From: an uncultured Candidatus Saccharibacteria bacterium
GTDB taxonomy: Bacteria > Patescibacteriota > Doudnabacteria > UBA920
Length of the DNA: 64,000 bases
NCBI GenBank assembly: GCA_964477745.1
Contig: CAYZEI010000002.1
Span: forward strand, 5,054-69,053
Direction of reading: 5' to 3'
Shown here: in pieces, positions 83 through 59,021 of the stretch
Position numbering within the stretch: the first letter of the stretch is position 1
How the letters are laid out: every line of letters begins with the position of its first letter
Made by a program: the position numbers and the translations under genes
Notes under the pieces: generated by a model
Databases searched by the model: none
Told to the model about the DNA's origin: nothing
Seen by the model: the letters and a program-made list of their open reading frames with translations, nothing else

Positions 83-190
83 ATGAGTCCTTGGCTACTG
101 TTGCTGATAGTTATACCGTTGCTCTGGATCTTCGGCAGAGCAGCCATCAGGAACGGAAGACCCGGTCGCCGATGGGCCGGACTCAAATAA
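83..190 (+). CDS. Small hydrophobic peptide (35 aa, MSPWLLLLIVIPLLWIFGRAAIRNGRPGRRWAGLK) in GC-rich islet; not in the ORF track (<60 aa).
   Basis: ATG at 83 preceded by AAGGAGATAGGAGGGG. Single TM-like hydrophobic stretch. Terminator hairpin follows. Local GC is visibly higher than the adjacent dnaE. Confidence 0.3.
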   Translation: MSPWLLLLIVIPLLWIFGRAAIRNGRPGRRWAGLK

Positions 191-223
191 CAGGAGGCCC
201 CTATGACCTCCAACAACAAACCG

Positions 224-266
224 CCGTGACGGGATCGACCCCCTTCACGGCGCTCACTTTTTTATG
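224..266 (+). terminator. Rho-independent terminator (ccgtgacggg...cccttcacgg + T-run)
   Basis: Inverted repeat followed by a TTTTTTAT run. Confidence 0.5.
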
Positions 267-321
267 GTTCGTGTTTGTATTTGTTCCTGTCTGTGTTTCC
301 TATAAGCTAAAACCTAAAAGC

Positions 322-3300
322 TCACGCCACGTCTATCATTACCACTTCCGGTAACTCGCGAAGTTCAGTCATAAGCTCATTGCTCATTCCCACTTGGGTT
401 TGAGTTTTTATTTTTTTAGCCGCCCGGCCGGAACCCACGGACAAAAATACTTGCACGTTGCCCGGATGTTTTTCTAAAATTGATTTTATTTTATTTAACG
501 CCTCCATACTGGCCAAACTGGTCATATGCAAAATAATTTGCTTATTTTTTTCCATTTCGGTAAGTGCCATGCCGTACAATTCGTCGTTCGGCAGTTCTTT
601 AATATCTTCAGCAATTAATTTAAATTCTTCATCTTTGTCTGACAGGCGCCCGGAGACCTGGACAATTTTGTCATCCAATAAATAGGGCAAGGCTTTTTCC
701 ATTACTTTAGGGAACACCAAAACTTCCACACTGCCGGTTAAATCCGCCAAGGTAAAAAAAGCCATTGGGTCATTTTTCCGTGTTAGGGTTCTTTTAAGCT
801 TGGTTACCAATCCACCCATAACCACATTTGCTCCCAGCTCGTCTAAATTCAAACTTTTTACTGAGCGCATATTTCCTAAAACTTTACGATGCACGTCCAA
901 CGGATGAGCAGACACATACATCCCCAAATGTTCTTTTTCCCAGAGCAACATTTCTTCTTTGGTGGCCGGGTCAGATGGTCTTAACTTTAATTGCGCCTTA
1001 AGCATAGACGCACCAAACAACGAACTTTGTCCGTTACTTATGCTTCGGGAATTTTCACGAACAAATTCCAGAACTTCTTCGGTATTATTTAATAACTGGC
1101 CGCGTTCGCCAAAAGCATCCAATGCTCCTGCTTTAGAAAGTGCTTCCCATGACCGTTTGTTAAAACTTTTGGTGTAAGCACGGGTCAAAAAATCTTCTAA
1201 AGAGCTAAACGGCGTTGACTTTTTATCAGTAGATTCTAACGCTTCTGCGTTTCCATCTTCAATCTTAAATCTTACATCAATAATCTGTCTTATAACATCC
1301 GAGCCTAAATTTTTAATGGCGTTTAAGCCAAAGCGAATAGTTTTTTCGTCCACAACGGTAAAATCTCCCAGAGATTCATTAACATCCGGTGGCAGTACGG
1401 CAATCCCTAAGGCTTTACAGTCTTCCACTGCTTCGTAAATTTTATCTTCATCGCCGGATTCCGCAGTCATTAAAGCGGCCATAAACTCCACCGGATAGTT
1501 AGCCTTCATATACGCGGTCTGGTAAGACACCACGGAATAACTGGCCGAATGTGCTTTGTTAAAACCGTAAGCCGCAAATGGTTCAATCCACGCCCACACG
1601 TCTTCGGCTTTTTTAAAAGTCCACTTGGAAGTTTCCGGACAGCCTTGAATAAATTTCATTTTTTGCTTGGCCATTTCTTCCGGAATCTTTTTACCGACCG
1701 CTTTTCTAAACTTGTCCACTTCTTCCCAAGTGTAACCGGCCAAGTCGTGAGCAATGGTAAGCAGGTCATCCTGATAAACTAAAATTCCATATGTACGTCG
1801 GAGAATTTTTTCAAAAGCCGGATCAAAATAAGAAATTAAGCTGGGATTATGTTTGCGCTTAATATACTCGTCTATAAATTGCATCGGACCAGGGCGATAC
1901 AAAGCAATCATAGCCATAATATCAAAAATACTGGACGGCTGAAGTTCTTTTAAGTGCCGAGTCATTCCCGAAGATCCCAATTGGAAAACCCCAAAGGTTA
2001 AACCCTCGGACAATAATTTAAATGTTTTTGGGTCAGGGTGGGGGAGATTGTAAATATCAATCTTTGTGTTGTGGCGTTTTTGGACAATATTTACGGCATT
2101 TTCCAAAATAGATAAGTTGCGAATGCCCAATAAGTCCAATTTGACCACACCAATAGCATGTGAAGAAGCATTAACATCTAACGCGTACATGTCGTACTGG
2201 GTAATAATTCTTTCTCCGTCCGGTTCTTTTTGCAAAGGGGAGTAATCAGTTAACGCTGTCGGGGTAATAACAATTCCCGCGGCGTGAACAGAAGCGTGTC
2301 GCGCGCACCCTTCTAATTTTTTGGCAATGGTTAAAATGCGGTTGGTCTCCGGATCATGCTCGGCAATTTCTTTTAACTCCGCATTCATTTCTATGGCTTT
2401 GTCCAAAGTCATTTGGAAACCTTGCTTGCCCAGCGGAATCATTTTGGCAATTTGATCACACTTGGAATAGGCCACACCCAAAGCCCGGCCGACATCGCGC
2501 ACCGCGGCGCGTGCCATCATGGTTCCGAAAGTAATAATTTGCGCCACTTTTTCTTTACCGAATTTTTGGGTAATGTAGGCGATGGCTTCATCACGACGGT
2601 TATCCGCAATGTCCAAATCAATATCCGGCGGGGTCGGCCGATGCATAGTCAAAAAACGTTCAAACGGTAATTCATAGTAAAGCGGATCCACATTGGTTAT
2701 CCCCAAAATGCGCCCGACAATACTTCCGGCAGCAGATCCTCTGGTGTTGGTAATTGCCCCAATACTGTGAGCCCCTTCCACCACGTCGGCTACCATTAAA
2801 AAGTAAGTATCAAAACCTTTTTTACAAATAATATTTAATTCGTAATCTATCCTTTCCTTAATGGCATCGGGGATGACACCGTTTTGTCCGTACAAAGGCA
2901 ATGCCTTTTCATAAGTAATCTTTACCAAGTATTCGGCTGTGGTGAACCCTTCGGGAATTTCCACTTGCGGAAAATACCGCTGGTCAATTTTAATTTCCAA
3001 ATTGCACATACCCGCCACTTTTTGGGTATTCTCCACGGCTTCGGGAATATCAGAAAATAATTCCATCATCCGCTCCGGGGATTTCAAAGACAAATCGTAA
3101 GCGCGCATGTCCAAACGGTCGGCGTCGTTAACCGTTCGCCCGGTACCAATACAAACCAGCAAATCCTGGGCTTCAAAATCTTCCGGATATATATAGTGAC
3201 AATCCGCCGTGGCCACCACAGGTAAACTGTTGGCTTTAGCCAAGGCAATTAATTTATTATTTAATTCTTCTTCTTTAGGATCGGGCGTGCGACTGTTGCG

Positions 3301-9027: not shown

Positions 9028-9073
9028 ACGCTTAATGTGTTATTATAAAAGGCTTCTGAAGGAGGAAGCATGA

Positions 9074-9433
9074 ATGATAACAGTTGCAGTTTCTCAGGTT
9101 ACCGTGACCAAAGTAGACACGGGGGATGGGATATTCTACACAATATCGGAGAACAACTTCGGATCTTTGCATCACGTCTCGTTCTTCGAAGTAGGTCTTT
9201 GCCGGATTCTAAACAAGTTGGAGCAATTCCTGAAATATGACGAGTACGATGTCCCGCCGACAGAAGAAGTCCAGCTAGGTGAGATGATAGGCTTTGTGAA
9301 AATTTGGCAGCTGACTGGTACCAAGCGGAGTATTTCACTAACCAAAAAGCAAATCACAGAACTTCTCATTTGGCTTGTCGACACAGACAACCTTCGAAAA
9401 AGCACCACTGGATGGTGTATCGTCAACAACTGA
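9074..9433 (+). CDS. Hypothetical protein (119 aa) in GC-rich islet inserted between prmC and prfA
   Basis: Strong SD (GAAGGAGGAAGC) 9 nt upstream. GC-rich codons. No recognised domain. Confidence 0.45.
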   Translation: MITVAVSQVTVTKVDTGDGIFYTISENNFGSLHHVSFFEVGLCRILNKLEQFLKYDEYDVPPTEEVQLGEMIGFVKIWQLTGTKRSISLTKKQITELLIWLVDTDNLRKSTTGWCIVNN

Positions 9434-9453
9434 GAGTACTCAGACCTAAAAAC

Positions 9454-9490
9454 AGGGCGGCCGCCACGCGAGCCGCCCTTTCGATTTTAT
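9454..9490 (+). terminator. Hairpin terminator (agggcggc...gccgccct)
   Basis: GC-rich 8-bp stem followed by a T-rich tract. Confidence 0.55.
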
Positions 9491-13943: not shown

Positions 13944-14129
13944 AAACGCTTCAATATATTATCATTTTTTTAACCATTTGGTCAATAAGCGACATTTAAA
14001 AAAATTACCTAAAGCCTTTACACAACCCCAAATAAATGATATTATTTAATGTTTCCAACTTGTAGGAGGAAACAAACTCCGCTACCGAGAGGGTAGCAAA
14101 GTCAGACGTGATGTTTGAGGAGTGTAAAT

Positions 14130-14555
14130 ATGCCAGTAACAGGCAAGTCCGAAGTCCATGCCCTGCAATACGCAGCGTGCATGTTTATGAACATTCTAGA
14201 CCAGGTACTGTGGTGCCGCCTTGATGGCGGGGAGCCGAATGAGAAAGGTCTCAACATCGAAGTGTCCCCGGGGAAGACCAAAAACGATTTCAAAGTTTTA
14301 ATCCATCCGGTAGGGTGGCCTCAGGAATCTAACATCCACAGCAGGTTTTCGGGCAATGACAAGATCGGATGGCACTTTTGGGAAGCCACTATCGATGCAC
14401 TGCATTTAATGCAAGACGGAAAACAGTTCAACGTTTTCTTCCAGATGAATACCGCCGCATGCTGGAAGAGACCGACATTCCACTGTTTTACGAATGGAGG
14501 AGCAGCCTTTTTTAAACAGGCGGCTTTCGAGGCTGGGTTCACCGTAGAGGACTGA
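14130..14555 (+). CDS. Hypothetical protein (141 aa) in GC-rich islet next to the tRNA pair
   Basis: ATG at 14130 with GAGGAG SD 7 nt upstream (the track ORF starts at TTG 14115). No recognised domain. Confidence 0.45.
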   Translation: MPVTGKSEVHALQYAACMFMNILDQVLWCRLDGGEPNEKGLNIEVSPGKTKNDFKVLIHPVGWPQESNIHSRFSGNDKIGWHFWEATIDALHLMQDGKQFNVFFQMNTAACWKRPTFHCFTNGGAAFFKQAAFEAGFTVED

Positions 14556-14687
14556 GTTACCACAATCCATTCGGCAGGCATTGCCGGAACGTCTCGACAT
14601 GATCGGGATAAGACCTACGTCCGAGGGTTAAATCGGACATCTTTCCAAGTTTGTTTACATTAGTAAATTTAGAAAGATAAATCTTGT

Positions 14688-14762
14688 TTAAACACCTCAA
14701 CCATCGGTTGAGGTGTTTAAATATCTAACCCCACTTCGATACGTCGACGTATCGAAGTGGGG
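14688..14762 (+). terminator. Two consecutive hairpins (aaacacctcaacc...ggttgaggtgttt; 34-bp perfect palindrome ccccacttcgatacGTCGACgtatcgaagtgggg)
   Basis: Perfect inverted repeats on direct reading. Confidence 0.5.
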
Positions 14763-14793
14763 CAGGGAACTGAAATAGGTTATACTACAAATA

Positions 14794-15635: not shown

Positions 15636-16886
15636 CTACGTTCCTTCCTGCCAGCTCGACAAATACTTTTTCTGAGCCGGAGTCAGAGTATCAATCTTTA
15701 CTCCCATGGCTTCCAATTTTAATTTAGACACGCGTTCGTCAATTTCTTTTGGCACATCGTAAACTTGAGCGTGCATATTTTTGTAATTTTTAGACAACCA
15801 TAAGCAGGTTAAGGCTTGGTCGGCAAAAGACATATCCATAACCGCACTTGGATGACCTTCGGCTGCAGCCAAGTTCATAAGGCGTCCTTCGGCAATCAAG
15901 AATAAATTTCTTCCATTTGGCATAGTATATTCTTCCACTTGGTCGCGAACAGTGCGGTGAGATTTGGCCAATTTTTGCATATCCTTTTGGTTTATCTCAA
16001 CATTAAAGTGCCCGCTATTGCCCAAAATTGCCCCGTCCTTCATTAATTTCATATGTTGGGCGGTAATAACGTCCTTGTCTCCTGTGGCAGTTAAAAATAC
16101 GTCGCCAATCTTGGCCGCGTCTACCATTTTCATAACTTCAAAACCGTCCATGGCCGCTTTAAGTGCCGGCAAGGGGTCCACTTCGGTAACCACAACTCTG
16201 GCACCTAAACCCTTAGCGCGCAAAGCCATACCGCTTCCGCAGTAACCATATCCGGCTACTACAACAATTTTACCGGACAGTAAAACATTGGTCGCTCTCA
16301 GCAAACCATCCATAGTGCTTTGACCGGTTCCGTAATAGTTATCAAACATATGTTTGGTCGGAGTGTCATTAACCGCCACGATTGGATATTTAAGCGCGCC
16401 GTCTTTAGCCATGGCCTTAAGACGAATAACTCCGGTGGTGGTTTCTTCTTGTCCGGCAATTACGGTTTTTAATAATTCTTTGCGTTCGCTGTGAATTAAA
16501 GAAATTAAATCCGCACCGTCGTCTATGGTAATGTGCGGTTTAAAATCCAAAGTTTTATTTAAACACATGTAATAATCTTTGTTGGAAATTCCTTTCCAGG
16601 CAAAAACATTTATTCCGTCTTCCACCAAAGCTGCAGCGACGTCGTCCTGAGTAGATAGGGGATTACTGCAACACAAAACCACTTCCGCGCCACCGGCGGC
16701 AATAGCCTTGGCCAAAACCGCGGTCTCTTTGGTTACGTGCAAACACGCCGCAATGGTCATATTTTTAAACGGCTGGTTCTTTTTGAATTCTTGGGCAATT
16801 TTCCGCATAACCGGCATTTCGCGTTCGGCGAGCGTAATATTTATATGCCCCTGCTTGGCCAACTTCATGTCTTTTACTTTGTGCAT
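15636..16886 (-). CDS. ahcY: Adenosylhomocysteinase
   Basis: NAD-binding GYGYCGSG motif. Conserved SAHH blocks. Confidence 0.95.
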   Translation of the reverse strand: MHKVKDMKLAKQGHINITLAEREMPVMRKIAQEFKKNQPFKNMTIAACLHVTKETAVLAKAIAAGGAEVVLCCSNPLSTQDDVAAALVEDGINVFAWKGISNKDYYMCLNKTLDFKPHITIDDGADLISLIHSERKELLKTVIAGQEETTTGVIRLKAMAKDGALKYPIVAVNDTPTKHMFDNYYGTGQSTMDGLLRATNVLLSGKIVVVAGYGYCGSGMALRAKGLGARVVVTEVDPLPALKAAMDGFEVMKMVDAAKIGDVFLTATGDKDVITAQHMKLMKDGAILGNSGHFNVEINQKDMQKLAKSHRTVRDQVEEYTMPNGRNLFLIAEGRLMNLAAAEGHPSAVMDMSFADQALTCLWLSKNYKNMHAQVYDVPKEIDERVSKLKLEAMGVKIDTLTPAQKKYLSSWQEGT

Positions 16887-17051
16887 TTGTTTCCTTAAAA
16901 AGTTAATTTGTACCGGTTTATTATAGCAAAATTTTCATTCCTGACAAAGGCTCTGGAAACTTTTTCTTACATATGCTAAACTAGCTCAACTGAAATTTGC
17001 CCCTGACAAACCGGGGGTGGTATCAACAAACAAGAATAAGGAGTGAAGACA

Positions 17052-17390
17052 ATGGCTACACAGGCCACTGGTCAACAGGTTATTACCGGATTCATCGTCC
17101 GGCGGTGGAAAAATGAGTTCCTCTCCCGCAAGGGAGAATGGATTGAACAGCCTCAAGGGATAGTGTGTGCATTCGTGCACCAACTTGAAGAGATTCTGAA
17201 CATCGACAGGACAATCATCAACCAGGCACAGTACATGTACTTTGGGGAGTACTCCCCAGAGACTGGCTTTGCCAAATCCAGGAGCCTGCCGTTAGCGGTC
17301 CCAAAGGAATTCAGAAATTTCCAAGATGACCTGGCAGAGGCGGTACTGGAACAAATGACGGTCAACCTCAAGGCCACACAAACGCCATAG
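17052..17390 (+). CDS. Hypothetical protein (112 aa) in GC-rich islet
   Basis: ATG with AAGGAGTG SD (the track ORF starts at GTG 17043). About 50% GC by eye. Own terminator. Confidence 0.45.
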   Translation: MATQATGQQVITGFIVRRWKNEFLSRKGEWIEQPQGIVCAFVHQLEEILNIDRTIINQAQYMYFGEYSPETGFAKSRSLPLAVPKEFRNFQDDLAEAVLEQMTVNLKATQTP

Positions 17391-17435
17391 CGTCAACCGT
17401 CATCACAACCGGCTAACCACGCCCCTGAGCCCCAG

Positions 17436-17473
17436 CCCTCCCCGCACCACACGCGGGGAGGGTACTATTTTTT
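17436..17473 (+). terminator. Terminator (ccctccccgc...gcggggaggg + T-run)
   Basis: GC-rich 10-bp stem followed by TACTATTTTTT. Confidence 0.7.
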
Positions 17474-17539
17474 AAAGACTAGACTTTTTTAAGGTTTTAT
17501 GTCAAAATATATTGAGTTTGTTACCCCACTTATCTTATT

Positions 17540-18065: not shown

Positions 18066-18214
18066 CGTAAAATTCACTCGTCGGACTCGCTCATCACGTG
18101 GCATGCCCAACGAATACACAACTTCTACGAACGTGATAAAAAAATAAGAATTTTACGTGATCGCGTGCGACATAGTGAATCTATGGACTTTACGCGACAC
18201 GAAAATATAAAGCC

Positions 18215-18469
18215 ATGCACTACGTCTATCTTCTCGAATGCCAAGATGACAAATCCTGGTATATCGGCCAAACAGACGACCTCAAAGCTCGAGTGAAACG
18301 CCACAACGACGGTTCTGGCGCTCGCACTACCGCCCGTAAAGAAAATTGGAATGTAATTTACTTTGAAGCCTATACTGAAAAACTAGACGCTCTCGGAAGA
18401 GAAAAGTTCCTGAAAAGCGGTTCTGGGAGAGCATATCTCAAAAAACAACTTAGGCATTATCTAAATTAG
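18215..18469 (+). CDS. GIY-YIG nuclease family protein (UPF0213-like)
   Basis: YVYLLECQD..WYIGQTDDLKARVKRHN motif. Confidence 0.75.
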   Translation: MHYVYLLECQDDKSWYIGQTDDLKARVKRHNDGSGARTTARKENWNVIYFEAYTEKLDALGREKFLKSGSGRAYLKKQLRHYLN

Positions 18470-18475
18470 CCAAAG

Positions 18476-18528
18476 AAACTTCTCTATATTTAGAGGAGTT
18501 TTTTTGTTGAGGGCTGTGGGAATTGGAC
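18476..18528 (+). repeat. Repeat R copy 1: terminator hairpin (cttctcta-tatt-tagaggag + T7) plus conserved 25-nt tail (gttgagggctgtgggaattggac)
   Basis: About 85% identical to 19353..19405. Confidence 0.55.
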
Positions 18529-18534
18529 TAAAAG

Positions 18535-19269
18535 GTGTATAATGAAATTAAAATTATATTTTTTAAAAAGTTAATTTTTTCCAAAAATATGTGGATTTTT
18601 ACTGAGGAAGAAAAAAAGATAATTTCTTCAATCGTACAAAAAGGTAGGATTGAGCAGCAAAAAAATGAAAAATTTGCCATAATGGATTTTGGTAATTTTT
18701 ACAAACTTTTTTCAGATGAAGAAATCAACCTAATTCATAAATATATTGCTATAAACCCGGAGGAATTAAATTACAGACTTCCTTATCTTGGAATGACAGA
18801 AATCCCAAATGACTTAATACCAATTTCGGGGCAAGTTTATAAAAAAATGGGTAAACATCAAACTATTCCTTGTCAATTCCTTCCTAAAAAGACATTCGAA
18901 GCGTATGAGCTACTTAATGAAGCGATTGAAAAAGACATAAACAAAAAATTATTAATATTATACGGTTACCGGTCACCGGCAAGGCAAGTTTTTATGTTTT
19001 TTGATATTTTAGAACGTATATATAGTTTTGATTTTAGTAAAACCTTGCAAAGAGTTTGTTTTCCAGCTTATAGCGAACATGTTTACCCTTTGCGGCAGGC
19101 AATTGATTTTGTTACCCCAGAAGAAGGCACTGATAACTTTGACAAAACAGTTGAATACAGCTGGTTAAAAGTGAACTCGAAAAAATACAATTTTTTTGAG
19201 TCCTACCCCAAAAACAACCAACTAGGCATGATGTTTGAGCCTTGGCATTGGCACCATGAATTTTTTTAA
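18535..19269 (+). CDS. Peptidase M15-like (VanY/D-Ala-D-Ala carboxypeptidase-like) protein
   Basis: SEH...AID and EPWHWHH motifs resemble M15B zinc-peptidase signatures. The true start may be a later ATG. Confidence 0.55.
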   Translation: MYNEIKIIFFKKLIFSKNMWIFTEEEKKIISSIVQKGRIEQQKNEKFAIMDFGNFYKLFSDEEINLIHKYIAINPEELNYRLPYLGMTEIPNDLIPISGQVYKKMGKHQTIPCQFLPKKTFEAYELLNEAIEKDINKKLLILYGYRSPARQVFMFFDILERIYSFDFSKTLQRVCFPAYSEHVYPLRQAIDFVTPEEGTDNFDKTVEYSWLKVNSKKYNFFESYPKNNQLGMMFEPWHWHHEFF

Positions 19270-19282
19270 ATTTATTTAAGAG

Positions 19283-19382
19283 CTGGGATACGAATATAAT
19301 TATTCAATCCCTGAACCACAGTTCTAACATCCTTCACCACGTCCTGCCAGAAAAACTTCTCTTACGTTAGAGGAGTTTTTTT
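19283..19382 (+). ncRNA. Candidate small RNA or 3' module A1: TATAAT (19295-19300) followed by about 75 nt of conserved core ending in the R-type terminator
   Basis: Paralogous to 19985..20086. Shared blocks gaatataattatt, agttctaa, tcct..ac, tcctgcca.aaaaa. Confidence 0.3.
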
Positions 19383-19405
19383 GATGAGGACTGTGGGGGT
19401 TGAAC
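19353..19405 (+). repeat. Repeat R copy 2 (terminator + conserved tail)
   Basis: Direct repeat of 18476..18528. Confidence 0.55.
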
Positions 19406-19412
19406 TTTTTTA

Positions 19413-19444
19413 GTCTGGACAAATCCAGGCTTTTTTGATATACT
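19413..19444 (+). promoter_or_regulatory. Hairpin with T-run overlapping a sigma70-like promoter (-35 TGGACA, 17 nt, -10 TATACT) for the 19484 ORF
   Basis: Spacing and hexamers on direct reading. Confidence 0.4.
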
Positions 19445-19483
19445 TCGATGTTACTAAAGCAATACATTTTACAAGGAGTGTTA

Positions 19484-19924
19484 ATGCAGAAGCCTTTTTT
19501 TGTTCCGCGTATTCTCGGTGACGATGAGGATTTTCCTATTAGTCCCAACGACATCGATGTCACAAACGAATTTAACTTTGTAGGAGCGTTCGACGTTCCT
19601 GATTCAGACAACGACAACCCCAACGACAGATACAACAATCAGAAAATGAACGAGGGAGCCACAATCGTTGTCAATACTTGCCAGAAGCAGGGGCATTGGG
19701 GGCCGTGCAATCCCTATGAGCTGACTGGATTCCATGAGGAAGCCACATTCTCATTGACCACCTTCCTGAAAGGAAGGCATCAGTTTAACGGTCTCGTAAT
19801 TAGGGGGGAAGACGGTCTGTGGCGTGTTACGGATAAGTTTATCATTTACTGCTATATGGCCGCTCCCAAAATCCGTACCAAACCCCGCCAGCTCCCTCCC
19901 ACCGCAAATCAAATCGAAGGCTGA
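19484..19924 (+). CDS. Hypothetical protein (146 aa) in GC-rich islet
   Basis: ATG with AAGGAGTG SD 6 nt upstream. Asp/Asn-rich N-terminal region and Cys pairs. No recognised domain. Confidence 0.45.
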   Translation: MQKPFFVPRILGDDEDFPISPNDIDVTNEFNFVGAFDVPDSDNDNPNDRYNNQKMNEGATIVVNTCQKQGHWGPCNPYELTGFHEEATFSLTTFLKGRHQFNGLVIRGEDGLWRVTDKFIIYCYMAAPKIRTKPRQLPPTANQIEG

Positions 19925-19984
19925 ACAGCGACGCCGTCTGCGTACCTCCAGGGTACAAAGACGGCGTTTCTAGTTAGTTAAATT

Positions 19985-20086
19985 AAATTTGGTATATGAA
20001 TATAATTATTTCTGTTTTAATAATAGTTCTAAGATTCCTTACAACATCCTGCCATAAAAAACCATAGCTGATGTTATGGTTTTTTA
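19985..20086 (+). ncRNA. Candidate small RNA or 3' module A2 (TATAAT 20001-20006; terminator ccatagctgatgttatgg + T6)
   Basis: Paralogue of A1. Confidence 0.3.
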
Positions 20087-20119
20087 TGTTTAGAACCCAA
20101 AGTGCTATACTCAACATAT

Positions 20120-20365
20120 ATGAAAATTCAAGTCTTAGGTTCGGGTTGCGCTACTTGCAAAAAATTGTTTGAAATCACCAAAACCGCGGTCAAGGAAATG
20201 GGAATGACTGAGGAAGTGGAATATATTACCGACTTTCAACAAATCCTCAATATGGGCCTTATGTCCAGTCCGGTTTTGGCAGTGGACGACAAACCGGCTC
20301 TGGTTGGTTTTGTGCCGAACGTAGCGGAAATTAAAAAAGCGATTTTAAAAGCAAGTACAAAATAA
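20120..20365 (+). CDS. Thioredoxin-fold 'redox-active disulfide protein 2'-like small protein
   Basis: MKIQVLGSGCATCKKL CxxC motif. Typically partnered with a DUF318-type permease. Confidence 0.6.
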   Translation: MKIQVLGSGCATCKKLFEITKTAVKEMGMTEEVEYITDFQQILNMGLMSSPVLAVDDKPALVGFVPNVAEIKKAILKASTK

Positions 20366-21333
20366 TGAATCTATTTTACCCAATCCAATTATTTTCAGAC
20401 TGGCTGGCTTTTACGGTGTTTAAACTGGCGCCCAAAAGTTTAGCAGGGGAGGCAGTGAATTTTTTTATTTTTGATTCCATAAAAATATTTATTCTGCTGG
20501 CAGTAATTATTTTTATAGTTTCTATTATCCGTTCCTACCTACCGCCGGAAAAAATTCGGAATATTCTGGCTCACAAAAACCAATACACAGGCAATGTAAT
20601 AGCTTCTTTGCTTGGTATTGTAACGCCGTTTTGTTCCTGTTCAGCCATTCCTTTATTTTTAGGCTTTGTGCAAGCCGGAGTGCCTTTGGGCACAACTTTT
20701 TCTTTTTTAATTGCCTCACCAATGATAAACGAAGTGGCCTTAGTTTTGCTACTTGGACTTTTCGGTTGGAAAATCGCCGGCCTCTATATTATTAGCGGAC
20801 TTTTTATTGCCATTATTTCCGGAATAATAATTGGAAAATTAAAAGTAGAAAGCTTGGTTGAATCTTTTGTATATCAGAACACTGTACCGGGTAATGCAAG
20901 CCTACCCACACTGACAACAAAAGAAAGAATTGTTTACGCCCGCAATTATACTTTAGAAATTTTAAAAAAAGTTTGGCCATATATTTTAGTTGGTATTGGT
21001 GTAGGTGCTTGGATACATGGTTACGTACCCACTGACTTTTTGGCCAAATATGCGGGAAACGGTAAATGGTACGGCGTGCCTTTAGCTGTCTTAATTGGCA
21101 TTCCACTTTATTCCAATGCCGCCGGGGTAATCCCATTAGTTTCCGCACTCACTGAAAAAGGAGTCAGTATGGGCACCACCTTGGCTTTTATGATGTCCGT
21201 TACCGCGCTGTCCTTACCGGAATTTATGATCCTAAAAAAAGTTATGAAAACAAAACTCCTCTTTATTTTCGCCGGAATTGTTGCTATAGGGATTACACTA
21301 ACCGGATATTTGTTTAATTTTATTTTAAAATAA
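20365..21333 (+). CDS. Permease (YraQ/DUF318-like)
   Basis: Polytopic membrane protein with a CSCS motif. Start overlaps the upstream stop. Confidence 0.65.
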   Translation: MNLFYPIQLFSDWLAFTVFKLAPKSLAGEAVNFFIFDSIKIFILLAVIIFIVSIIRSYLPPEKIRNILAHKNQYTGNVIASLLGIVTPFCSCSAIPLFLGFVQAGVPLGTTFSFLIASPMINEVALVLLLGLFGWKIAGLYIISGLFIAIISGIIIGKLKVESLVESFVYQNTVPGNASLPTLTTKERIVYARNYTLEILKKVWPYILVGIGVGAWIHGYVPTDFLAKYAGNGKWYGVPLAVLIGIPLYSNAAGVIPLVSALTEKGVSMGTTLAFMMSVTALSLPEFMILKKVMKTKLLFIFAGIVAIGITLTGYLFNFILK

Positions 21334-36979: not shown

Positions 36980-37849
36980 ATGTCTATGATTAGAAAACTA
37001 CTTACAACTTTTATTTTAATCTTTATTGCTATTGGGCTATTAGGTATTTACTATGTTATAAAGCTCAAAAACACCCCAAAAACGGTTAAAACACCTGCCA
37101 AGGCTCAAGAGGTCACCTTGCGCTTTATTGAAGGCTGGAACACAACGCAGATTGCCTCATATTTGAATTTCTATGGGGATCGCCCGCAACTGGCGCATAT
37201 CGTAAACAGCGGGGATTTTTTGGTCGCCCAAAAAGAATTTTCCGTAAAAGATTACCCGCTTCTCGCATCCAAGCCGGAAAAAGCCGATCTGGAAGGTTTT
37301 TTGTTTCCGGACAGCTATCGCTTTTACCTTTCTGCACTAAGCCTTGCTTCCAGCACGCCTAAGGAAATTAGCAATACCATAATAAAAAAAATGCTGGATA
37401 ATTTTGCTTTAAAATTTACCCCTGAAATGCAGAAGCAAGCGGACAAACAAAAATTATCCGTTTATAAAATTATTACCTTAGCTTCGGTACTGGAAAAAGA
37501 AACCGGTGCCAGTTTAGCGGAAAAGAAAATTGTGGCCGGAATTTTTTATAACCGGTTAAAAATCGGCATGCCGTTGCAAAGTGATGCTACAGTAAATTAC
37601 GCCACCAAAAAAGATCTACCCAGCCCAACTGAGGCAGATACCAAAATTGACTCCCCGTACAACACTTATAAATACCCGGGACTGCCGATGGGGCCCATCT
37701 GTAACCCCTCTTTAAACTCCATAATTGCCGCGTTAGAGCCCGATAATACCGACTACCTGTATTTCCTCCATGACCAAAAAACCGGCCAAGCCTACTACGC
37801 CAAAACCTACGACGAGCACTTTGCTAACAAGTACAAATACTTAAAATAA
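36980..37849 (+). CDS. mltG: Endolytic murein transglycosylase (YceG-like)
   Basis: N-terminal TM. EGFLFPDSYRF signature. Confidence 0.85.
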   Translation: MSMIRKLLTTFILIFIAIGLLGIYYVIKLKNTPKTVKTPAKAQEVTLRFIEGWNTTQIASYLNFYGDRPQLAHIVNSGDFLVAQKEFSVKDYPLLASKPEKADLEGFLFPDSYRFYLSALSLASSTPKEISNTIIKKMLDNFALKFTPEMQKQADKQKLSVYKIITLASVLEKETGASLAEKKIVAGIFYNRLKIGMPLQSDATVNYATKKDLPSPTEADTKIDSPYNTYKYPGLPMGPICNPSLNSIIAALEPDNTDYLYFLHDQKTGQAYYAKTYDEHFANKYKYLK

Positions 37850-37852
37850 TAT

Positions 37853-37890
37853 ATTCTACGCGACTCTGTAATTACAGAGTCGCGTAGAAT
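37853..37890. repeat. P-family palindrome copy 2 (perfect 38-bp, centre TAATTA)
   Basis: attctacgcgactctgtaattacagagtcgcgtagaat. Confidence 0.6.
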
Positions 37891-37947
37891 CATTTATAGA
37901 CAAATAAAAAATGCACGAGCGTGCATTTTTTATTTTAAGAAAATAAT

Positions 37948-38964: not shown

Positions 38965-39528
38965 TTATGTTAATTCTTTCATTACTTTTCTTAAAATTTC
39001 CGCTTCCACGCGACAGTCCACCAGAGCATCATGCAGATTAACGGGCTTTTTTACTTTGAGCATCTTAAGCATTGATTCAATGCCAAAACCCGCAAAATTC
39101 TTTACGGAACTTAAACGGTTTTTTGCCGCGAGAAAAGGATAAAATAATCCCCAAAGTTCAAAATAATGATAATCAAACTTCCATTTTATTCCGGCCCGCT
39201 TATAACTTTCCAGTAAAAACCTTTTATCGTTGTACCCGACATAAAAAGCCTGAATAACATCATGACCAAAAGTGCGGTCAAACTTTTTTAACACTTGTTT
39301 TAACTCCGGCGCTCCTTTGAGCATTTCCAAAGTAATTTTATTTACTTTCATGGAAGCCTTATCGCGAGTCTTCCAACGCCGAGGTTTTACATAAGAAGTA
39401 AAAAACTTTTTTTCTTCTAAAGTTTTTTTGTCCAACAAGACCGCGGACAGTTGTAAAATTTCGTGTTTTCCAATATCAAACCCGCTAAACTCAGTGTCTA
39501 TTAATAAGATGTCTTTTTTGAAATTCAT
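38965..39528 (-). CDS. DEDDh 3'-5' exonuclease (DnaQ/oligoribonuclease-like), paralogue B
   Basis: Exo I IDTEFSGFD. Exo III HDALVDCRVEAE. Confidence 0.7.
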   Translation of the reverse strand: MNFKKDILLIDTEFSGFDIGKHEILQLSAVLLDKKTLEEKKFFTSYVKPRRWKTRDKASMKVNKITLEMLKGAPELKQVLKKFDRTFGHDVIQAFYVGYNDKRFLLESYKRAGIKWKFDYHYFELWGLFYPFLAAKNRLSSVKNFAGFGIESMLKMLKVKKPVNLHDALVDCRVEAEILRKVMKELT

Positions 39529-39532
39529 AGAT

Positions 39533-39614
39533 TTTACGAAATACGAACCTTTACGAACTTACGAATTTTCCCGCGAGCTTTGTTCGTAAGTTCGTAGGCA
39601 TTCGTACTTCGTAA
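39533..39614. repeat. 'acgaa' palindromic element copy 1 (tttacgaa..tacgaac..ttacgaa / ttcgtaagttcgta..ttcgtacttcgtaaa)
   Basis: Homologous to 40158..40232 and 56903..56985. Confidence 0.65.
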
Positions 39615-39618
39615 AAAA

Positions 39619-40155
39619 TTATACTTCTTTAATTATTCTTCTAAATATCTCCGCGTCCAGACGAACTTTTTCCATAGCATCGTGAGGGTTTTTTTGTTTT
39701 AATTTAAAATTATCCAAAAAGGTGTTAAAAGTTGGCATCTTTTTTAAACCGTAGTTTAGAGTATAAATATACCCCAAGGTCCACAACTGAACCACGTGCT
39801 CATCGTAGTCAAATGGAACTACGGCTCTTTTAAATGAGGCTTTCAAAAATAACAACTGTTGGAAGCTGTGAGTAGAAAGAAGTAAGTCGCGCCCGAACTT
39901 TTGGTGAAATTGCTTTATACAATCGTAAATTTTTGGACTTTTGCGCAAAATTTCCGGAGTAGTATTGAGTAATTTTGCGTGTGCGTTTACCACACTGTCT
40001 AAATAGCTGACTTTAATAAAACTGTTAAAATTATTCTTTTCCAGCAAATTATCCTTATCCAGCAGTACGGCTGAAAGTTGAATGACAGAATCTTTGTCAG
40101 GATCAGGGCCAGTTGTTTGAATTTCAAAAAATAGTAGGTCTTTTATAAATCTCAT
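39619..40155 (-). CDS. DEDDh 3'-5' exonuclease, paralogue A
   Basis: FFEIQTTGPDPDKD (Exo I). HDAMEKVRLDAE (Exo III). Confidence 0.7.
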   Translation of the reverse strand: MRFIKDLLFFEIQTTGPDPDKDSVIQLSAVLLDKDNLLEKNNFNSFIKVSYLDSVVNAHAKLLNTTPEILRKSPKIYDCIKQFHQKFGRDLLLSTHSFQQLLFLKASFKRAVVPFDYDEHVVQLWTLGYIYTLNYGLKKMPTFNTFLDNFKLKQKNPHDAMEKVRLDAEIFRRIIKEV

Positions 40156-40157
40156 AT

Positions 40158-40232
40158 TTTACGAAGTACTAACCTTTACGAACTTACGAATTTACACCCG
40201 AGCTCACTTCGTAAGTTCGTATGAATTCGTAC
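40158..40232. repeat. 'acgaa' palindromic element copy 2
   Basis: As above. The central 15-20 nt differ between copies. Confidence 0.65.
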
Positions 40233-40241
40233 TTCGTAAAA

Positions 40242-41214: not shown

Positions 41215-41601
41215 CTAGCTGGCGAGTCCTGTGACCAAGAGCTTGCCGTCTTCAATAACAGCGTTTTCCCGTGTAACGGCTTTTCCGGCCGGAGCCCCAT
41301 GTTTTGTGGTGGTGATGGTACACTTTGGCCCTGCGGACGATGGCCTCAGGTCGACTTCGATTTCTACTTTTACCCTAGGGCTGTCCATCGAAAAGACAAC
41401 CTTGTCCATACTCAGTTCGCAGGTCACCTCACAGCCATCACGAGATGACCAGATCTCTGAGATCTTTTCATCTGTGACTGTATGGGACATGTACCACGCT
41501 ACGGCATTTTCTGCCTTTTTGAGGTGGTTCCAGAACCGCATGAATTCTCCTGGGCGTGCCCAGTTAAGCCTTAGTGCGACCAATGTATCAAACATCTTCA
41601 T
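41215..41601 (-). CDS. Hypothetical protein (about 126 aa) in GC-rich islet
   Basis: AAAGAGGA SD. The true start is probably the second ATG (41595). No recognised domain. Confidence 0.45.
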   Translation of the reverse strand: MKMFDTLVALRLNWARPGEFMRFWNHLKKAENAVAWYMSHTVTDEKISEIWSSRDGCEVTCELSMDKVVFSMDSPRVKVEIEVDLRPSSAGPKCTITTTKHGAPAGKAVTRENAVIEDGKLLVTGLAS

Positions 41602-48689: not shown

Positions 48690-49145
48690 TAACCGCCGTG
48701 AGGTAAAACCCCGCGGCGGAAGAAGGAAGCATACTCGGCATCTTCAGACCTTCTTCCGCCGTGCTTAAACTTTAAGCGTTAAAGCTGTCTCGGCCATACT
48801 ACAGCCGTTAAAACGACAACCCGACTTAAAGTCCGAGCTCTTAACAACGAGCGCTCGTCTTGTTAAGAGCTCTTATTAAAGAGCGTGTAGCGAATCAGAA
48901 GGAGGCTGGCAGTCTTCAATCCCCAAAGCTGTTACCCTTTGAAAAGAGACTACCACAGATTGCCTGTGGTTGCGGGAGCCGGTGTTAACGACTTGCCACA
49001 AACAACCCATTCCTCCTTCTGTCGCTAACTCACCAGGATTTCTCCTAGCGAGATAAAGCCTCTCAAAACCATGAACCCACCCGAAGAAGGAGGCGTTCAG
49101 GGAAATATAAGCGTGATGTCGTCGCCTATTCAAGAGGCCTGATTA
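48690..49145 (-). ncRNA. Candidate structured RNA gene (about 400-450 nt, GC-rich); leading guess RNase P RNA (rnpB)
   Basis: No credible ORF. Many long stems (e.g. gagctcttaacaa...ttgttaagagctc; cggcggaagaagg...ccttcttccgccg). A..AAGUCCGAGCUC / GAGCUCGGACUU segments resemble RNase P CR-I/CR-V. Bounded by terminators on both sides. Confidence 0.35.
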
Positions 49146-49164
49146 AAAATACTATACAATATAA

Positions 49165-49196
49165 AACAAAAAAAGTCAACCTATTTAAGGCTGACT
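49165..49196 (-). terminator. Terminator for the 49211..49624 gene (gtcagcc-ttaaatagg-ttgac + T7 on the minus strand)
   Basis: Hairpin plus T-run. Confidence 0.6.
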
Positions 49197-56221: not shown

Positions 56222-56899
56222 CTAGAGCTTGTATTTTCCTTTTTGTTGTTCAATAGTAATTTTTCCGCCTTCAATAGTAATAACGCGCTTTTTAATTTTA
56301 TTTACTAAATCCGAGGCGTGAGTTGCTAAAATTACGGTTGTCCCCAGCTGGTTTATTTTCATTAGCAAATCTATGACTTCAGCGGCATTAACTTCGTCCA
56401 AATTTCCGGTAGGCTCGTCGGCAAGTAACAGTAATGGGCGGTGTGATAAGGCGCGGGCAATGGCTACGCGTTGTTTTTCTCCGCCGGACATTTCGTGAGG
56501 AAAACTGTCTTTTTTATGCAAAAGCCCGACTAAATCCAAAATTTTTGGCACTTCCAGCTTAATCTTATCTAACCTATGTCCACAAACTTCCATGGCAAAA
56601 GCCACGTTTTCAAACGCGGTACGTCTAGGTAGAAGTTTGATATCCTGAAAAACCATGCCGATTTTTCGGCGCAAATAAGGGAGGTCGGATTTTTTAACTT
56701 TTGTTATATCAACATCATCAATAAAAATTTTTCCGCCGTCTATCGCCTCTTCACGAATAATCAATTTCAAAAGAGTGGACTTGCCGGCGCCTGAAAGCCC
56801 CACAATCGAGACAAATTCTCCCCGATGCACCTGCAAATTAATGCCGTCTAAGGCACGTTGATGATTATATTTTTTTACAACATTTTCAAATTTGATCAT
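56222..56899 (-). CDS. ftsE: Cell division ATP-binding protein FtsE
   Basis: Walker A GLSGAGKST. ABC signature LSGGEKQR. Start set at MIKFENV. Confidence 0.9.
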   Translation of the reverse strand: MIKFENVVKKYNHQRALDGINLQVHRGEFVSIVGLSGAGKSTLLKLIIREEAIDGGKIFIDDVDITKVKKSDLPYLRRKIGMVFQDIKLLPRRTAFENVAFAMEVCGHRLDKIKLEVPKILDLVGLLHKKDSFPHEMSGGEKQRVAIARALSHRPLLLLADEPTGNLDEVNAAEVIDLLMKINQLGTTVILATHASDLVNKIKKRVITIEGGKITIEQQKGKYKL

Positions 56900-56902
56900 A
56901 AT

Positions 56903-56985
56903 CTTTACGAATACGAACATTTACGAACATACGAAATTAGCACTTGTATAAATTCGTAAGTTCGTATTAATTCGTACTTCGTAAA
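56903..56985. repeat. 'acgaa' palindromic element copy 3 (between prfB and ftsE)
   Basis: ctttacgaatacgaacatttacgaacatacgaaatt...aattcgtaagttcgtattaattcgtacttcgtaaaa. Confidence 0.65.
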
Positions 56986-57003
56986 ATCATTATACCAGAT
57001 TTT

Positions 57004-58098: not shown

Positions 58099-58282
58099 AG
58101 GAAGATATTAAAAATAACTAGTTCATTATAACAGGAAAAATGCCGCATTATATACTAAATTGGACAAAATGTCAATACCCCCGCTTTTTAAAGGTATAGA
58201 CATTTTAGTGGTTTTTTGTAAAAATGTATGGTCAAGAGAAAATCACATCTCTTGAGAAAACCCCAAAGGAGGGGTAAATACA

Positions 58283-58489
58283 ATGGTTAATATACTTCGT
58301 GGTTTGCTGGGAGCCATAGCTGTCGAATTTGCACTAATTCCTGCTGTCGCAGGGTGGTGCCGAGGAGAGGGATGCGTCTCCAATACTTTCGGAGTAGGAT
58401 TACTCCACATTCTGGCAGTCGCCTGCCTAATTTGCGGAGCTGTCGCCACATTTTGGCCAGCGATCACCAGCCGTCAGAAACTGCGGTAA
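58283..58489 (+). CDS. Small hydrophobic/membrane peptide (68 aa) in GC-rich islet
   Basis: AAAGGAGGGG SD 8 nt upstream. Two hydrophobic segments. Confidence 0.4.
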   Translation: MVNILRGLLGAIAVEFALIPAVAGWCRGEGCVSNTFGVGLLHILAVACLICGAVATFWPAITSRQKLR

Positions 58490-58507
58490 ACACTACCGCA
58501 TACTCTC

Positions 58508-58538
58508 GCAGGGAACCCTGGTTCCCTGCTCTTTTTTA
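58508..58538 (+). terminator. Terminator (gcagggaacc-ctg-gttccctgc + T6), followed by two more hairpins (58550-58582, 58599-58617)
   Basis: On direct reading. Confidence 0.65.
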
Positions 58539-58592
58539 TATAAAATTTTGGCCGTGCTCCCCTTGTAAGAGTCACGGCCAGTGTCTGCGAGT

Positions 58593-59021
58593 CTATATGG
58601 CCACGTTGTAGTGGCCTAAGATGTATTCTATAAGCACCTCCTTCTGTGCCAGTTTGTGGTGTCCTTCCAGGTGTTTGATCCCCGAAAAAAGTAATATCCT
58701 GATTAACTGCTGGCGACTAACCCCGTAAGAACGGGACAGCTCGCCAAGTTTGCTAATCAAAGACGGACGACAGGGTATCTTCCCCTGGTGATGTGCCACA
58801 TCACTGTTCAATTCGTTTCCCGCTTGGAGCGGGAAATCAGGTTGGCGTTCTATCACGGATAGCATAACCTCAAGCAGAAATACTGTCTGCTCTACTAAAT
58901 GCCTACCGCTTTGCTCCGCCATCTCCGCAAGAAGATGGTGAAGCTCTTTTCCATATCCAAGGGACAGTTTTGCGGGCATGATTTGCCAGCGAACATATCC
59001 CGGGCTGTAGTATTCTACCAA
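58593..59021 (-). CDS. Putative tandem ribbon-helix-helix (CopG/Arc-like) DNA-binding protein in GC-rich islet
   Basis: KLSLGYGKELHHLLAEMAEQSGRHLVEQTVFLL and LISKLGELSRSYGVSRQQLIRILL both fit the RHH beta-alpha-alpha pattern. The true start may be the internal ATG (MPAKL). Confidence 0.35.
   Translation of the reverse strand: MVEYYSPGYVRWQIMPAKLSLGYGKELHHLLAEMAEQSGRHLVEQTVFLLEVMLSVIERQPDFPLQAGNELNSDVAHHQGKIPCRPSLISKLGELSRSYGVSRQQLIRILLFSGIKHLEGHHKLAQKEVLIEYILGHYNVAI

Follow-up and report, generated by a model that had tools for sequence, protein, structure and literature searches.

The DNA analyzed here, referred to throughout as the window, is a stretch of 64,000 nucleotides of contig CAYZEI010000002.1 from an uncultured bacterium that falls within Candidatus Doudnabacteria. 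Scattered between its conserved genes are short G+C-rich units that carry one or two small open reading frames (ORFs), most of them led by a strong Shine-Dalgarno (SD) site. On balance, the units are best read as moron-like expression cassettes of one or two genes that belong to the flexible genome and are exchanged among related lineages by recombination. The anatomy of the units, the coding status of their genes, the occupancy of their slots in related genomes, and a silent divergence uncoupled from that of the flanks were observed directly. The units are not a single class of mobile element.

In the proposed model, each unit would be self-contained, with a sigma-70-type promoter, a leader, a strong SD, a small coding sequence (CDS), and an intrinsic terminator; the G+C-rich segment at 48690-49135 is excluded from the set. 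The products would be small, clade-restricted, and very fast-evolving proteins (a TraY-like tandem ribbon-helix-helix (RHH) protein, a possible winged helix, an NTF2/cystatin-like fold, two-helix membrane proteins, and others). As part of the flexible gene pool of Candidatus Doudnabacteria, the units would sit in intergenic slots between conserved genes, and in related genomes a slot would be empty, hold a strongly diverged ortholog, or hold an unrelated unit in the same style. Turnover would proceed by loss, by nonhomologous replacement, and by homologous recombination between related lineages, anchored either in the conserved flanking genes or in a conserved leader and terminator. Links to integrative elements would be occasional, and dedicated insertion machinery would not be involved. 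Translation of the units would start at the SD of leadered mRNAs; core genes would start without an SD, many of them with a −10 box near the start codon.

Composition, Shine-Dalgarno use, and coding status

Eleven candidate ORFs were considered: a 35-aa ORF at 83, o2 (9074), o3 (14130), o4 (17052), o5 (19484), o6a (21421), o6b (21800), o7b (27910, minus strand), o8a (41215-41595, minus strand), o9b (58283), and o9a (58593-58979, minus strand). The mean G+C content of the window is 0.401, and its 300-nucleotide windows have a standard deviation of 0.049 and a 95th percentile of 0.487. The original prediction, made by eye, listed ten segments (islets) of about 50% G+C. Their measured values are 0.509, 0.464, 0.495, 0.519, 0.479, 0.528, 0.537, 0.493, 0.491, and 0.496; the segments are indeed richer than their flanks, at 0.46 to 0.54 versus the window mean of 0.40, and the one at 9060-9490 reaches 46% rather than about 50%. 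Internal flanks mostly fall at 0.32 to 0.42. The left flank of islet 7 has a value of 0.476, and the 0.54 found next to islet 1 reflects merely the first 59 bases of the window. The listed segments cover 10.5% of the window and contain 10 of the 19 G+C peaks of at least 0.49, and the remaining peaks sit within core genes (dnaE, prfA, prfB, iPGM, and others). A comparison by codon position, proposed with the original prediction, gave G+C contents at third positions (GC3) of 0.53 to 0.65 for the islet ORFs versus a mean of 0.40 for 63 core genes (standard deviation 0.047; maximum 0.55, in HU). Second-position values (GC2) of the islet ORFs are low, 0.31 to 0.44, as coding sequence predicts.

A canonical SD (GGAGG, AGGAG, or GAGGAG, 5-11 nucleotides 5′ of the start) precedes 9 of the 11 candidate ORFs versus 1 of 64 other genes (Fisher p = 4e-9). 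The SD-led starts are 83, 9074, 14130, 17052, 19484, 21421 (a GTG), 21800, 27910 (minus strand), and 58283. The claim that every islet ORF has a canonical SD fails for o8a, which has a weaker GAGG, and for o9a, which has none. The lack of SDs in most core genes was borne out, with the glutaredoxin gene at 22948 as the sole exception, and the SD variant said to recur three times was located as (A/G)AGGAGTG at o3, o4, and o5. Terminator-like hairpins, expected behind each ORF, lie 3′ of most units; none is evident after o6b. As predicted, the islet ORFs lie in intergenic slots and form a compositionally and translationally distinct set. Among core genes, those for ribosomal proteins have neither an SD nor high GC3, and HU, which is highly expressed, combines its raised GC3 with a GGAG upstream. 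A TATAAT-like box (at least 5 of 6 matches) ends 4-14 nucleotides before the start codon of 16 of the 63 core genes, which suggests leaderless or very short-leader mRNAs, with the caveat that random matches are common in A+T-rich DNA.

The larger ORFs that were scanned are ordinary housekeeping or accessory genes, among them dnaE, prmC, prfA, truB, AdoHcyase, iPGM, prfB, folA, and gltX, and the window contains four tRNAs. The closest relatives of AdoHcyase (15636-16886, minus strand) are in Patescibacteria metagenome-assembled genomes labeled Candidatus Doudnabacteria or mislabeled Saccharibacteria. Independent assemblies hold the same sequences (L081, 99.97% identical; L082, 100%; L085 and L088, >99%), so the islets are not assembly chimeras. 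L-numbers denote loci of relatives and P-numbers denote representatives of protein clusters.

Homologs were sought with a full HMMER search of the 11 concatenated ORFs against 1.84 billion cluster representatives. The search recovered each ORF's own cluster or a close relative, apart from the 35-aa ORF, which is absent from this protein collection and has no homolog in it. For o8a, nothing was found among these representatives beyond its own cluster P0014, and its exact 128-aa form is not in the collection. All other ORFs have 2-14 further cluster representatives at 23 to 68% identity, and their description as strict ORFans has to be withdrawn. Examples are P0030 and P0036 for o2 (48% and 43% identical), P0031 for o7b (51%), and P0032 and P0048 for o9b; an indexed single-protein search with o3 returned only its own cluster. 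The accompanying claim of no known family stands, with zero matches to the candidate ORFs in Pfam, PHROGs, and PADLOC and no similarity of the ORFs to one another. Conserved motifs are visible in the family alignments, and nonsynonymous divergence (dN) is below synonymous divergence (dS) within every gene whose dS could be estimated; both support coding. Exact-sequence look-ups of 10 ORFs showed that public assemblies annotate eight of them as genes.

Structure prediction returned confident folds for two proteins. The AlphaFold model of o3 has a predicted local distance difference test score (pLDDT) of 90 and places a helix on a curved sheet, with weak matches to NTF2/cystatin-like proteins. 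The o9a model (pLDDT 82) contains the β-α-α arrangement twice, as a single-chain double RHH, and its best matches in the PDB are chains E-G of the F-plasmid relaxosome (template modeling score 0.53-0.79), presumably TraY, together with single-chain Arc. Searches of PDB profiles with o3 and o9a returned no match. The o5 family has six representatives, and its profile touches the MecI winged helix weakly (E = 0.04). An assignment of o6a as STAS-like was dropped as unsupported, the PDB profile search having given chance-level matches only. By these models and profiles, two members of the set look like small DNA-binding proteins, and the predicted folds (RHH, possible winged helix, small membrane proteins) suggest regulators and membrane factors more than secreted effectors. 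The rapid evolution of the proteins would also fit the host-interaction effectors of an episymbiont that the original prediction gave as an example.

It is hardly credible that the islets are noncoding, that is, structured RNAs or G+C-rich spacers with chance ORFs. The length of the ORFs is barely beyond chance in such G+C-rich DNA (P = 0.004-0.29 versus shuffles), several islets have long overlapping ORFs on both strands, islet 10 (48690-49135) is truly a structured RNA, and the leaders of o3 and o4 carry conserved hairpins. All this fits a noncoding origin, but the protein families keep their motifs down to 23% identity, the models of o3 and o9a are of high confidence, the called frames combine low GC2 with high GC3, the SDs are correctly spaced, and no islet matches an Rfam family. 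The noncoding explanation is refuted for o2-o7, o9a, and o9b, which are real protein genes, and survives for islet 1 and, weakly, for o8a. The o8a ORF is probably coding and is the least supported of the ORFs longer than 60 aa.

Slot occupancy and divergence in relatives

Loci of relatives at many distances were collected around AdoHcyase (from GTDB genomes and Joint Genome Institute metagenomes) and around o9a. Core genes are collinear with those of the relatives, and the islet cores have no DNA match. Empty gaps at the o2, o3, and o4 sites span 39-166 bp. The prfA-prmC gap that holds o2 is 48 bp in L005, the tRNA-Tyr-truB gap that holds o3 is 39-109 bp in L002, L004, and L006 versus 850 bp in the window, and the o4 unit is cleanly missing, with no target duplication, from L003, L005, and L090, where the slot measures ~130-170 bp in L003 and L005. 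Elsewhere the slots are filled differently, by unrelated ORFs that are SD-led and G+C-rich: the o2 slot of L089 contains one of 90 aa (G+C 0.48), the o3 slot of L001 one with an AAGGAGG motif ahead of it, and the o4 slots of L004 and L006 different ones again.

In other cases, the same or a neighboring site holds an ortholog. The o2 homolog P0030 occupies the same slot between prmC and prfA in L169, with SD and terminator kept and prmC just 56% identical; o2 evolves no faster than prmC. Members of the o4 family adjoin AdoHcyase on its upstream side only in the window, L089, L175, and L171, and the distribution of the family is patchy among close relatives: it is kept at 86% AdoHcyase amino-acid identity and absent at 92 to 99%. 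The o6a-o6b pair and its upstream module are conserved in L175, directly 3′ of tRNA-Thr. The o7b homolog P0031 adjoins iPGM at the same position in L179, L180, and L181, an o9b ortholog with its GWCxGxGC motif lies in the same folA-prfB slot in L083, and a 65% identical o9a homolog adjoins tmk in L177. The G+C content is elevated (0.43-0.54) in all homologs for which it was measured, those of o2, o4, o6a/b, and o9a, and reaches 0.52-0.54 in o4 and o6 homologs within genomes at 0.39-0.42. The SD is kept in the o2, o4, and o6a/b homologs and the terminator in those of o2 and o4.

The presence/absence comparison proposed earlier thus found slots that are empty, orthologous, or unrelated across relatives. 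The original prediction of a single horizontally acquired mobile class does not survive it, as o2, o4, o6a/b, o7b, o9a, and o9b have homologs at the same or neighboring syntenic sites. By the prediction's own reckoning, the same ORFs at the same sites with the same composition in distant relatives would make them old genes, and this was found for o2 out to 56% prmC identity and for o4 out to 86% AdoHcyase identity. Because composition and SD persist in deeply diverged orthologs, o2, o4, o6a/b, o7b, o9a, and o9b are not recent foreign imports. The more general idea of horizontal acquisition is upheld in part, by the exchange of o9a described below, by the empty and refilled slots, and by an o5 homolog near a serine recombinase.

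Divergence was analyzed against the lineage of L083/L084 and L089, which are probably one; L084 and L089 come from the same sample. Core genes differ from this lineage by dS of 0.37-0.84 and dN of at most 0.04. The o9a cassette is identical to that of L083 at 526 of 528 positions (dS 0.012 versus 0.46-0.84 for the flanking genes). The o9a protein is identical in L084, L086, and L087, the flanking DNA is ~86-87% identical, and the identity of o9a ends at the unit borders. These sequences indicate that the o9a cassette moved recently between lineages. Its neighbor o9b is 48% identical to the L083 protein (58% in nucleotides), and o9a and o9b therefore evolve independently. Around o4, identity to L089 is 97-100% in the promoter, leader, first codons, terminator, and tRNA flank. 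The CDS as a whole matches at just 57% of nucleotides and 41% of amino acids, with indels and with divergence across its whole length; its dN of 0.56 exceeds the dS of 0.37 of adjacent AdoHcyase. Compared with L175, o6a and o6b have dN of 0.45-0.47, and AdoHcyase has a dS of 0.365.

Silent divergence was also measured as synonymous differences at identical-residue codons only. The values are 0.42-0.53 for o4, o6a, o6b, and o9b, 0.19-0.27 for adjacent core genes, and 0.01 for o9a. With silent divergence about twice that of the flanks in the first group and far below it in o9a, the units coalesce either deeper or much later than their surroundings. This uncoupling is read as allele exchange among related lineages, with recombination as the vehicle that we infer from the sequences.

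An alternative is vertical descent only, in which the units are old clade-specific genes that stayed in place, their patchiness arose by repeated loss, selection on the mode of expression kept their G+C content and SDs, and the proteins diverge fast because they are weakly constrained or caught in an arms race. The orthologs at the same or neighboring sites speak for it, as do the raised G+C wherever measured, the SDs kept in the o2, o4, and o6a/b homologs, the o3 and o4 leaders conserved across lineages with saturated silent sites, and the GC3 and upstream GGAG of the core gene HU. Against it stand an o9a dS of 0.012 between lineages whose flanks have dS of 0.46-0.84, silent divergence of o4, o6a/b, and o9b at about twice the flanking level, and an o4 that is present at 86% AdoHcyase identity and absent at 92-99%. 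Unrelated ORFs fill the o2 slot even though o2 evolves no faster than prmC, and the ribosomal protein genes have neither SDs nor high GC3. Vertical descent alone is accordingly a minority reading that we regard as unlikely.

The leaders of o3 and o4 are better conserved than their coding regions. The 130 nucleotides upstream of o4 are conserved in L171, L172, and L175, even though AdoHcyase dS is 1.37 in L171, and contain a TG-extended −10 box, a hairpin, and AAGGAGTGAAG. The o4 promoter consensus and the hairpin/T-run terminator are conserved across relatives. The o3 leader is conserved in L170 and L178 despite protein identities of 53% and 37%, and one of its hairpin pairs is altered on both sides, from U-A to C-G. 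The leaders point to regulated, SD-dependent translation of o3 and o4, and they supply homology anchors for recombination.

The association of SD and high G+C extends to relatives. A simple gene call on the relatives' loci gave 805 ORFs, of which 49 (6%) are SD-led. These exceed the non-SD ORFs of the same locus by a mean of 0.063 in G+C and 0.084 in GC3, and 42 of the 49 are richer (p = 6e-7). The association is a property of the clade and not specific to the window; the size of the effect is approximate, because SD motifs are somewhat likelier to occur by chance in G+C-rich DNA. An anti-SD motif is detected in just 48% of Parcubacteria and is mostly missing from the group that lacks uL1 (PMC9297842). 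Relatives in the present comparison encode uL1, which probably places them outside that group, and an anti-SD is probably present in this clade. Full-text literature searches did not find this pattern described.

A broader proposal, tentative and rather doubtful as a whole, combines two expression classes in this Doudnabacteria clade with a G+C content held up by recombination-linked gene conversion. Core genes may be translated without an SD, often from leaderless mRNAs. The G+C-rich, fast-diversifying set may be a translational regulon with strong SDs behind conserved structured leaders. Its members may be shuffled between lineages by recombination, and an active process, such as GC-biased gene conversion at recombination hot spots, may keep their G+C high. 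If the proposal were true, composition would mark recombination history and not foreign origin, and two-class translation would provide one of few instances in which SD dependence sets a gene class apart. Were it false, the observations would amount to well-documented but ordinary turnover of accessory genes.

Scanning the larger ORFs of the window with Pfam turned up neither an integrase nor a transposase nor a reverse transcriptase, and the units are dispersed; both agree with the original prediction, which saw no integrase, transposase, or array. Target duplications, terminal repeats, and a boundary motif shared around the units were sought in the window and not found. The only repeats near units are an imperfect ~90-bp pair around o5 and generic terminator/−10 modules. 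Among the relatives, an o5 homolog (66% identical, L173) is separated from a large serine recombinase by ~3.5 kb that include ImmA-like and XRE-like genes, and a 53% identical o3 homolog lies in a run of SD-led ORFs with G+C of 0.46-0.49.

A variable segment of 6 kb (18066-24116) lies downstream of tRNA-Trp and includes islets 5 and 6. In addition to o5 and o6a/o6b, it encodes, by Pfam assignment, a GIY-YIG protein, VanY (G+C 0.31), a thioredoxin, an ArsP permease, a rhodanese, ArsR, the SD-led glutaredoxin, and a YgaP-like protein. In L090, L091, L092, and L095, the end of tRNA-Trp (18065) is joined straight to 24117, and the block is absent as a whole. Pfam found no integrase in the segment, and a direct repeat of the tRNA-Trp 3′ end was not seen at the far border (24060-24400), nor was any attachment-site (att) repeat. 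A tRNA-linked integrative island was rejected for this segment: presence and absence beside the tRNA agree with one, and the integrase and the tRNA-end repeat are missing.

These data bear on the possibility that the units came recently from foreign, G+C-richer donors that use SDs, or form a dedicated mobile class, and have not yet ameliorated to host composition. Such an origin would explain a composition and SD use atypical for the host, the recent transfer of one cassette (o9a), the serine recombinase near the o5 homolog, and the variable segment beside tRNA-Trp. It is decidedly improbable given that the same families, composition, and sites recur in relatives across saturated silent divergence, because of which the composition is not a transient trace. 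In addition, neither an integrase nor a transposase was found in the window, nor were terminal repeats or target duplications, homologs with DNA context occur only on relatives' contigs or on short contigs of unassigned origin, and IMG/VR, PHROGs, and Pfam gave no matches.

Several points weigh against exchange of moron-like cassettes as the explanation. Neither a recombination event nor a donor was seen directly, and alignment error in fast-evolving proteins, or a mutation rate that is raised locally, could account for part of the deeper silent values. Scans of IMG/VR with the o9a family, an o5 homolog, and an o3 homolog gave no relatives, nor did PHROGs for the units. The link to integrative elements consists of one short contig for o5 and one for o3, the promoters and terminators of the units are consensus matches only, and islet 1 and o8a are without comparative support. 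Relatives were sampled around two anchors only, AdoHcyase and o9a, which places islet 8 outside the slot comparison. The stable high G+C also has no account in this explanation. Fast-evolving genes are expected to drift to an A+T-rich equilibrium, so some force keeps the units G+C-rich. Candidate causes are GC-biased gene conversion at recombining loci, selection on the mRNAs, and repeated re-import from a G+C-richer pool.

Anatomy of the units and neighboring elements

Islet 1 (60-262, plus strand, G+C 0.51) is truncated by the start of the window and was read from the sequence and the SD scan. It has an SD at 72-77, the 35-aa hydrophobic ORF at 83-190, which is a putative coding sequence only, and a second SD at 192-197 ahead of an 8-codon ORF (204-230, MTSNNKPP) whose end overlaps a terminator hairpin and T-run (~219-262). 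The strong second SD and short ORF may form an arrangement like that of a leader peptide or may be coincidental. The o2 unit (9040-9490, plus strand) lies antisense between prfA and prmC and consists of a −10-like box, a hairpin over the SD (9059-9065), a 119-aa CDS (9074-9433), and a bidirectional G+C-rich terminator (9454-9479). Between tRNA-Tyr and truB, the o3 unit (14017-14765, plus strand) has a promoter-like site (14017-14045), the conserved structured leader (14046-14129), a 141-aa CDS (14130-14555), and two terminator hairpins (~14689-14762).

The o4 unit (16945-17475, plus strand) lies between AdoHcyase and tRNA-Thr. Its conserved promoter and leader, with the hairpin and the SD in AAGGAGTGAAG, span 16945-17051 and are followed by a 112-aa CDS (17052-17390) and a terminator (17435-17463). 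The possibility that o4 is the target of a diversity-generating retroelement was rejected: Pfam detected no reverse transcriptase among the larger ORFs of the window, no internal repeat of o4 was found, and divergence extends across its whole CDS. Other inserts were seen in the same tRNA-rich neighborhood of relatives (L089 4169-4882, L175 3608-4270, and L029 7477-8139). One is a 237-aa membrane protein between tRNA-Tyr and tRNA-Thr that by eye is presumably VIT1/CCC1-like, and the others are A+T-rich ORFs of 220 aa (G+C 0.32-0.33) that, again by eye, resemble homing endonucleases. This neighborhood is a general hot spot for inserts.

The o5 unit (19407-19975, plus strand) comprises an upstream terminator/−10 module, the SD AAGGAG (19473-19478), a 146-aa CDS (19484-19924), and a terminator hairpin (~19930-19975), and is flanked by the imperfect direct repeats of ~90 bp. 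Imperfect repeated modules at 19290-19406, 19990-20085, and 18469-18529 each consist of a −10-like box and a terminator hairpin separated by ~55 nucleotides. These modules border the o5 unit and stand 3′ of the GIY-YIG gene, similar ones occur in L003, and they could be small RNA genes or recombination scars. The two-gene unit of o6a and o6b (21350-22063, plus strand) starts with a terminator/−10 module (21353-21387) and the SD AAGGAGG (21407-21413). The GTG-initiated o6a (21421-21819) encodes 132 aa, and o6b (21800-22063), with its SD GGAGG, encodes 87 aa with two transmembrane helices and the C-terminal motif DDWQHQHGxCLLE.

On the minus strand, the o7b unit (27707-27925) has the SD AAGGAGG (27919-27925) and a CDS of 65-67 aa and is convergent with iPGM. 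The 126-aa ORF o8a (41215-41595, minus strand) has its weak GAGG 7 nucleotides 5′ of the second ATG, and its segment also has long overlapping ORFs on the opposite strand. The o9b unit (58266-58535, plus strand) has the SD AAGGAGG (58266-58272), a 68-aa CDS (58283-58489) with two transmembrane helices, and a terminator (58503-58535). The o9a cassette (58497-59024, minus strand) consists of the 128-aa CDS of the predicted tandem RHH protein, its own terminator, and 45 bp upstream. The two genes converge on a short region that contains their terminator hairpins. A toxin-antitoxin pair of o9a and o9b was rejected, as the genes are convergent, evolve independently, and have no PADLOC or Pfam match.

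Three copies of a near-perfect palindrome of ~39 bp, TATTCTACGCGACTCTGTAATTACAGAGTCGCGTAGAAT, occur at 30717-30771, 37842-37896, and 59065-59119, one of them just outside the o9a cassette. Ahead of the o9a start is a related short inverted repeat, GTAG-TATT-CTAC (~59006-59017), at which the predicted RHH protein might bind as its operator. A 39-nucleotide element with the palindrome CATTCTGCAGAATATG occurs twice (25654-25692 and 25964-26002), 5′ of a small ArsR/MarR-like gene and of iPGM, and the two copies are a likely operator pair. A 101-nucleotide repeat (39516-39616 and 40141-40241) lies upstream of two tandem RNase T-like exonuclease genes, and a weaker third copy (56886-56986) is near prfB.

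The segment at 48690-49145, which the original prediction listed as ncRNA-like and also G+C-rich, is a conserved structured RNA and not a member of the class. It spans ~440 nucleotides (48690-49135, minus strand) directly upstream of a class-V aminotransferase gene. A near-consensus sigma-70-type promoter (TTGACT, 17 nucleotides, TATAGT) lies near 49140-49185 on the minus strand, and a long terminator-like hairpin lies at the 3′ end, just 5′ of the aminotransferase. The segment is ~95% identical to L083 versus ~81-91% for nearby coding sequence, and the minus strand folds with a minimum free energy of −190.9 kcal/mol (z = −7.8), compared with −145.8 (z = −4.6) for the plus strand. No Rfam family matches it even at E up to 10. 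The best islet score is 20 bits versus a gathering threshold of 35, and only the four tRNAs reach threshold over the window, islets and leaders included. The segment is a candidate novel structured RNA or a candidate long leader of the aminotransferase gene. The longest ORF of that gene (48741, minus strand) begins inside the terminator-like hairpin; a 417-aa gene call in a relative and the alignment favor the ATG at 48676, which is probably the start. The motifs CCUCCUUCU and AGAAGGAGG of the RNA were considered as an anti-SD mimic, and the idea was dropped because they pair with each other in the predicted fold.

Relation to known systems

Genomes of the candidate phyla radiation (CPR)/Patescibacteria are rich in small unknown genes, which raises the questions of which of them are genuine and of their turnover and expression. 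In the units, four properties coincide: the G+C content is high, a strong SD is present in a genome poor in SDs, the proteins evolve very fast, and the genealogies are uncoupled from those of the flanks. This provides a simple sequence signature by which the flexible genes of such genomes, possibly involved in interactions, could be picked out. The coincidence also poses a puzzle of composition, as genes that evolve this fast would be expected to turn A+T-rich, yet the units remain G+C-rich.

The moron of Hendrix and Juhala is reportedly an autonomous promoter-ORF-terminator unit of deviant base composition, inserted between genes that are adjacent in related phages. Like it, the units have their own promoter-like site, ORF, and putative intrinsic terminator, lie between genes adjacent in relatives, and differ in composition from their neighbors. 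Unlike phage morons, they are found in a cellular CPR chromosome among housekeeping genes, with no phage genes nearby, and have no PHROG match and no IMG/VR relatives. Several are long-term residents with conserved leaders, and they are G+C-richer than the host, not merely different from it.

Integron cassettes are likewise small single-ORF units of no known function with a hairpin-forming 3′ end and high variability between strains. The units here have no integrase, attI, or array; they have their own −10/−35-like promoter sites and leaders, and their 3′ hairpins carry T-runs, as intrinsic terminators do. An integron origin was rejected: Pfam detected neither an integrase nor a recombinase among the larger ORFs, the units stand singly or in pairs, and no 3′ element shared among them was found. 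The predicted fold of o9a, with β-α-α twice in one chain, resembles TraY and the Arc/MetJ RHH proteins. In contrast to those, o9a has no Pfam or PDB-profile match and no relaxase or oriT context, and DNA binding is predicted only.

Replacement-type flexible genomic islands of marine bacteria have differing content between the same flanks and are swapped by homologous recombination. The units share with them slots that are empty, orthologous, or unrelated and silent divergence uncoupled from the flanks, but they are tiny (0.3-0.8 kb, one or two genes), scattered, of shared composition, and SD-led in an SD-poor genome. SD-poor bacterial genomes are themselves known, for example in Bacteroidota, and, as in these, almost no core gene of the window has an SD. 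What sets this genome apart is a defined minority of genes with very strong SDs, and these are the G+C-rich, fast-evolving genes.

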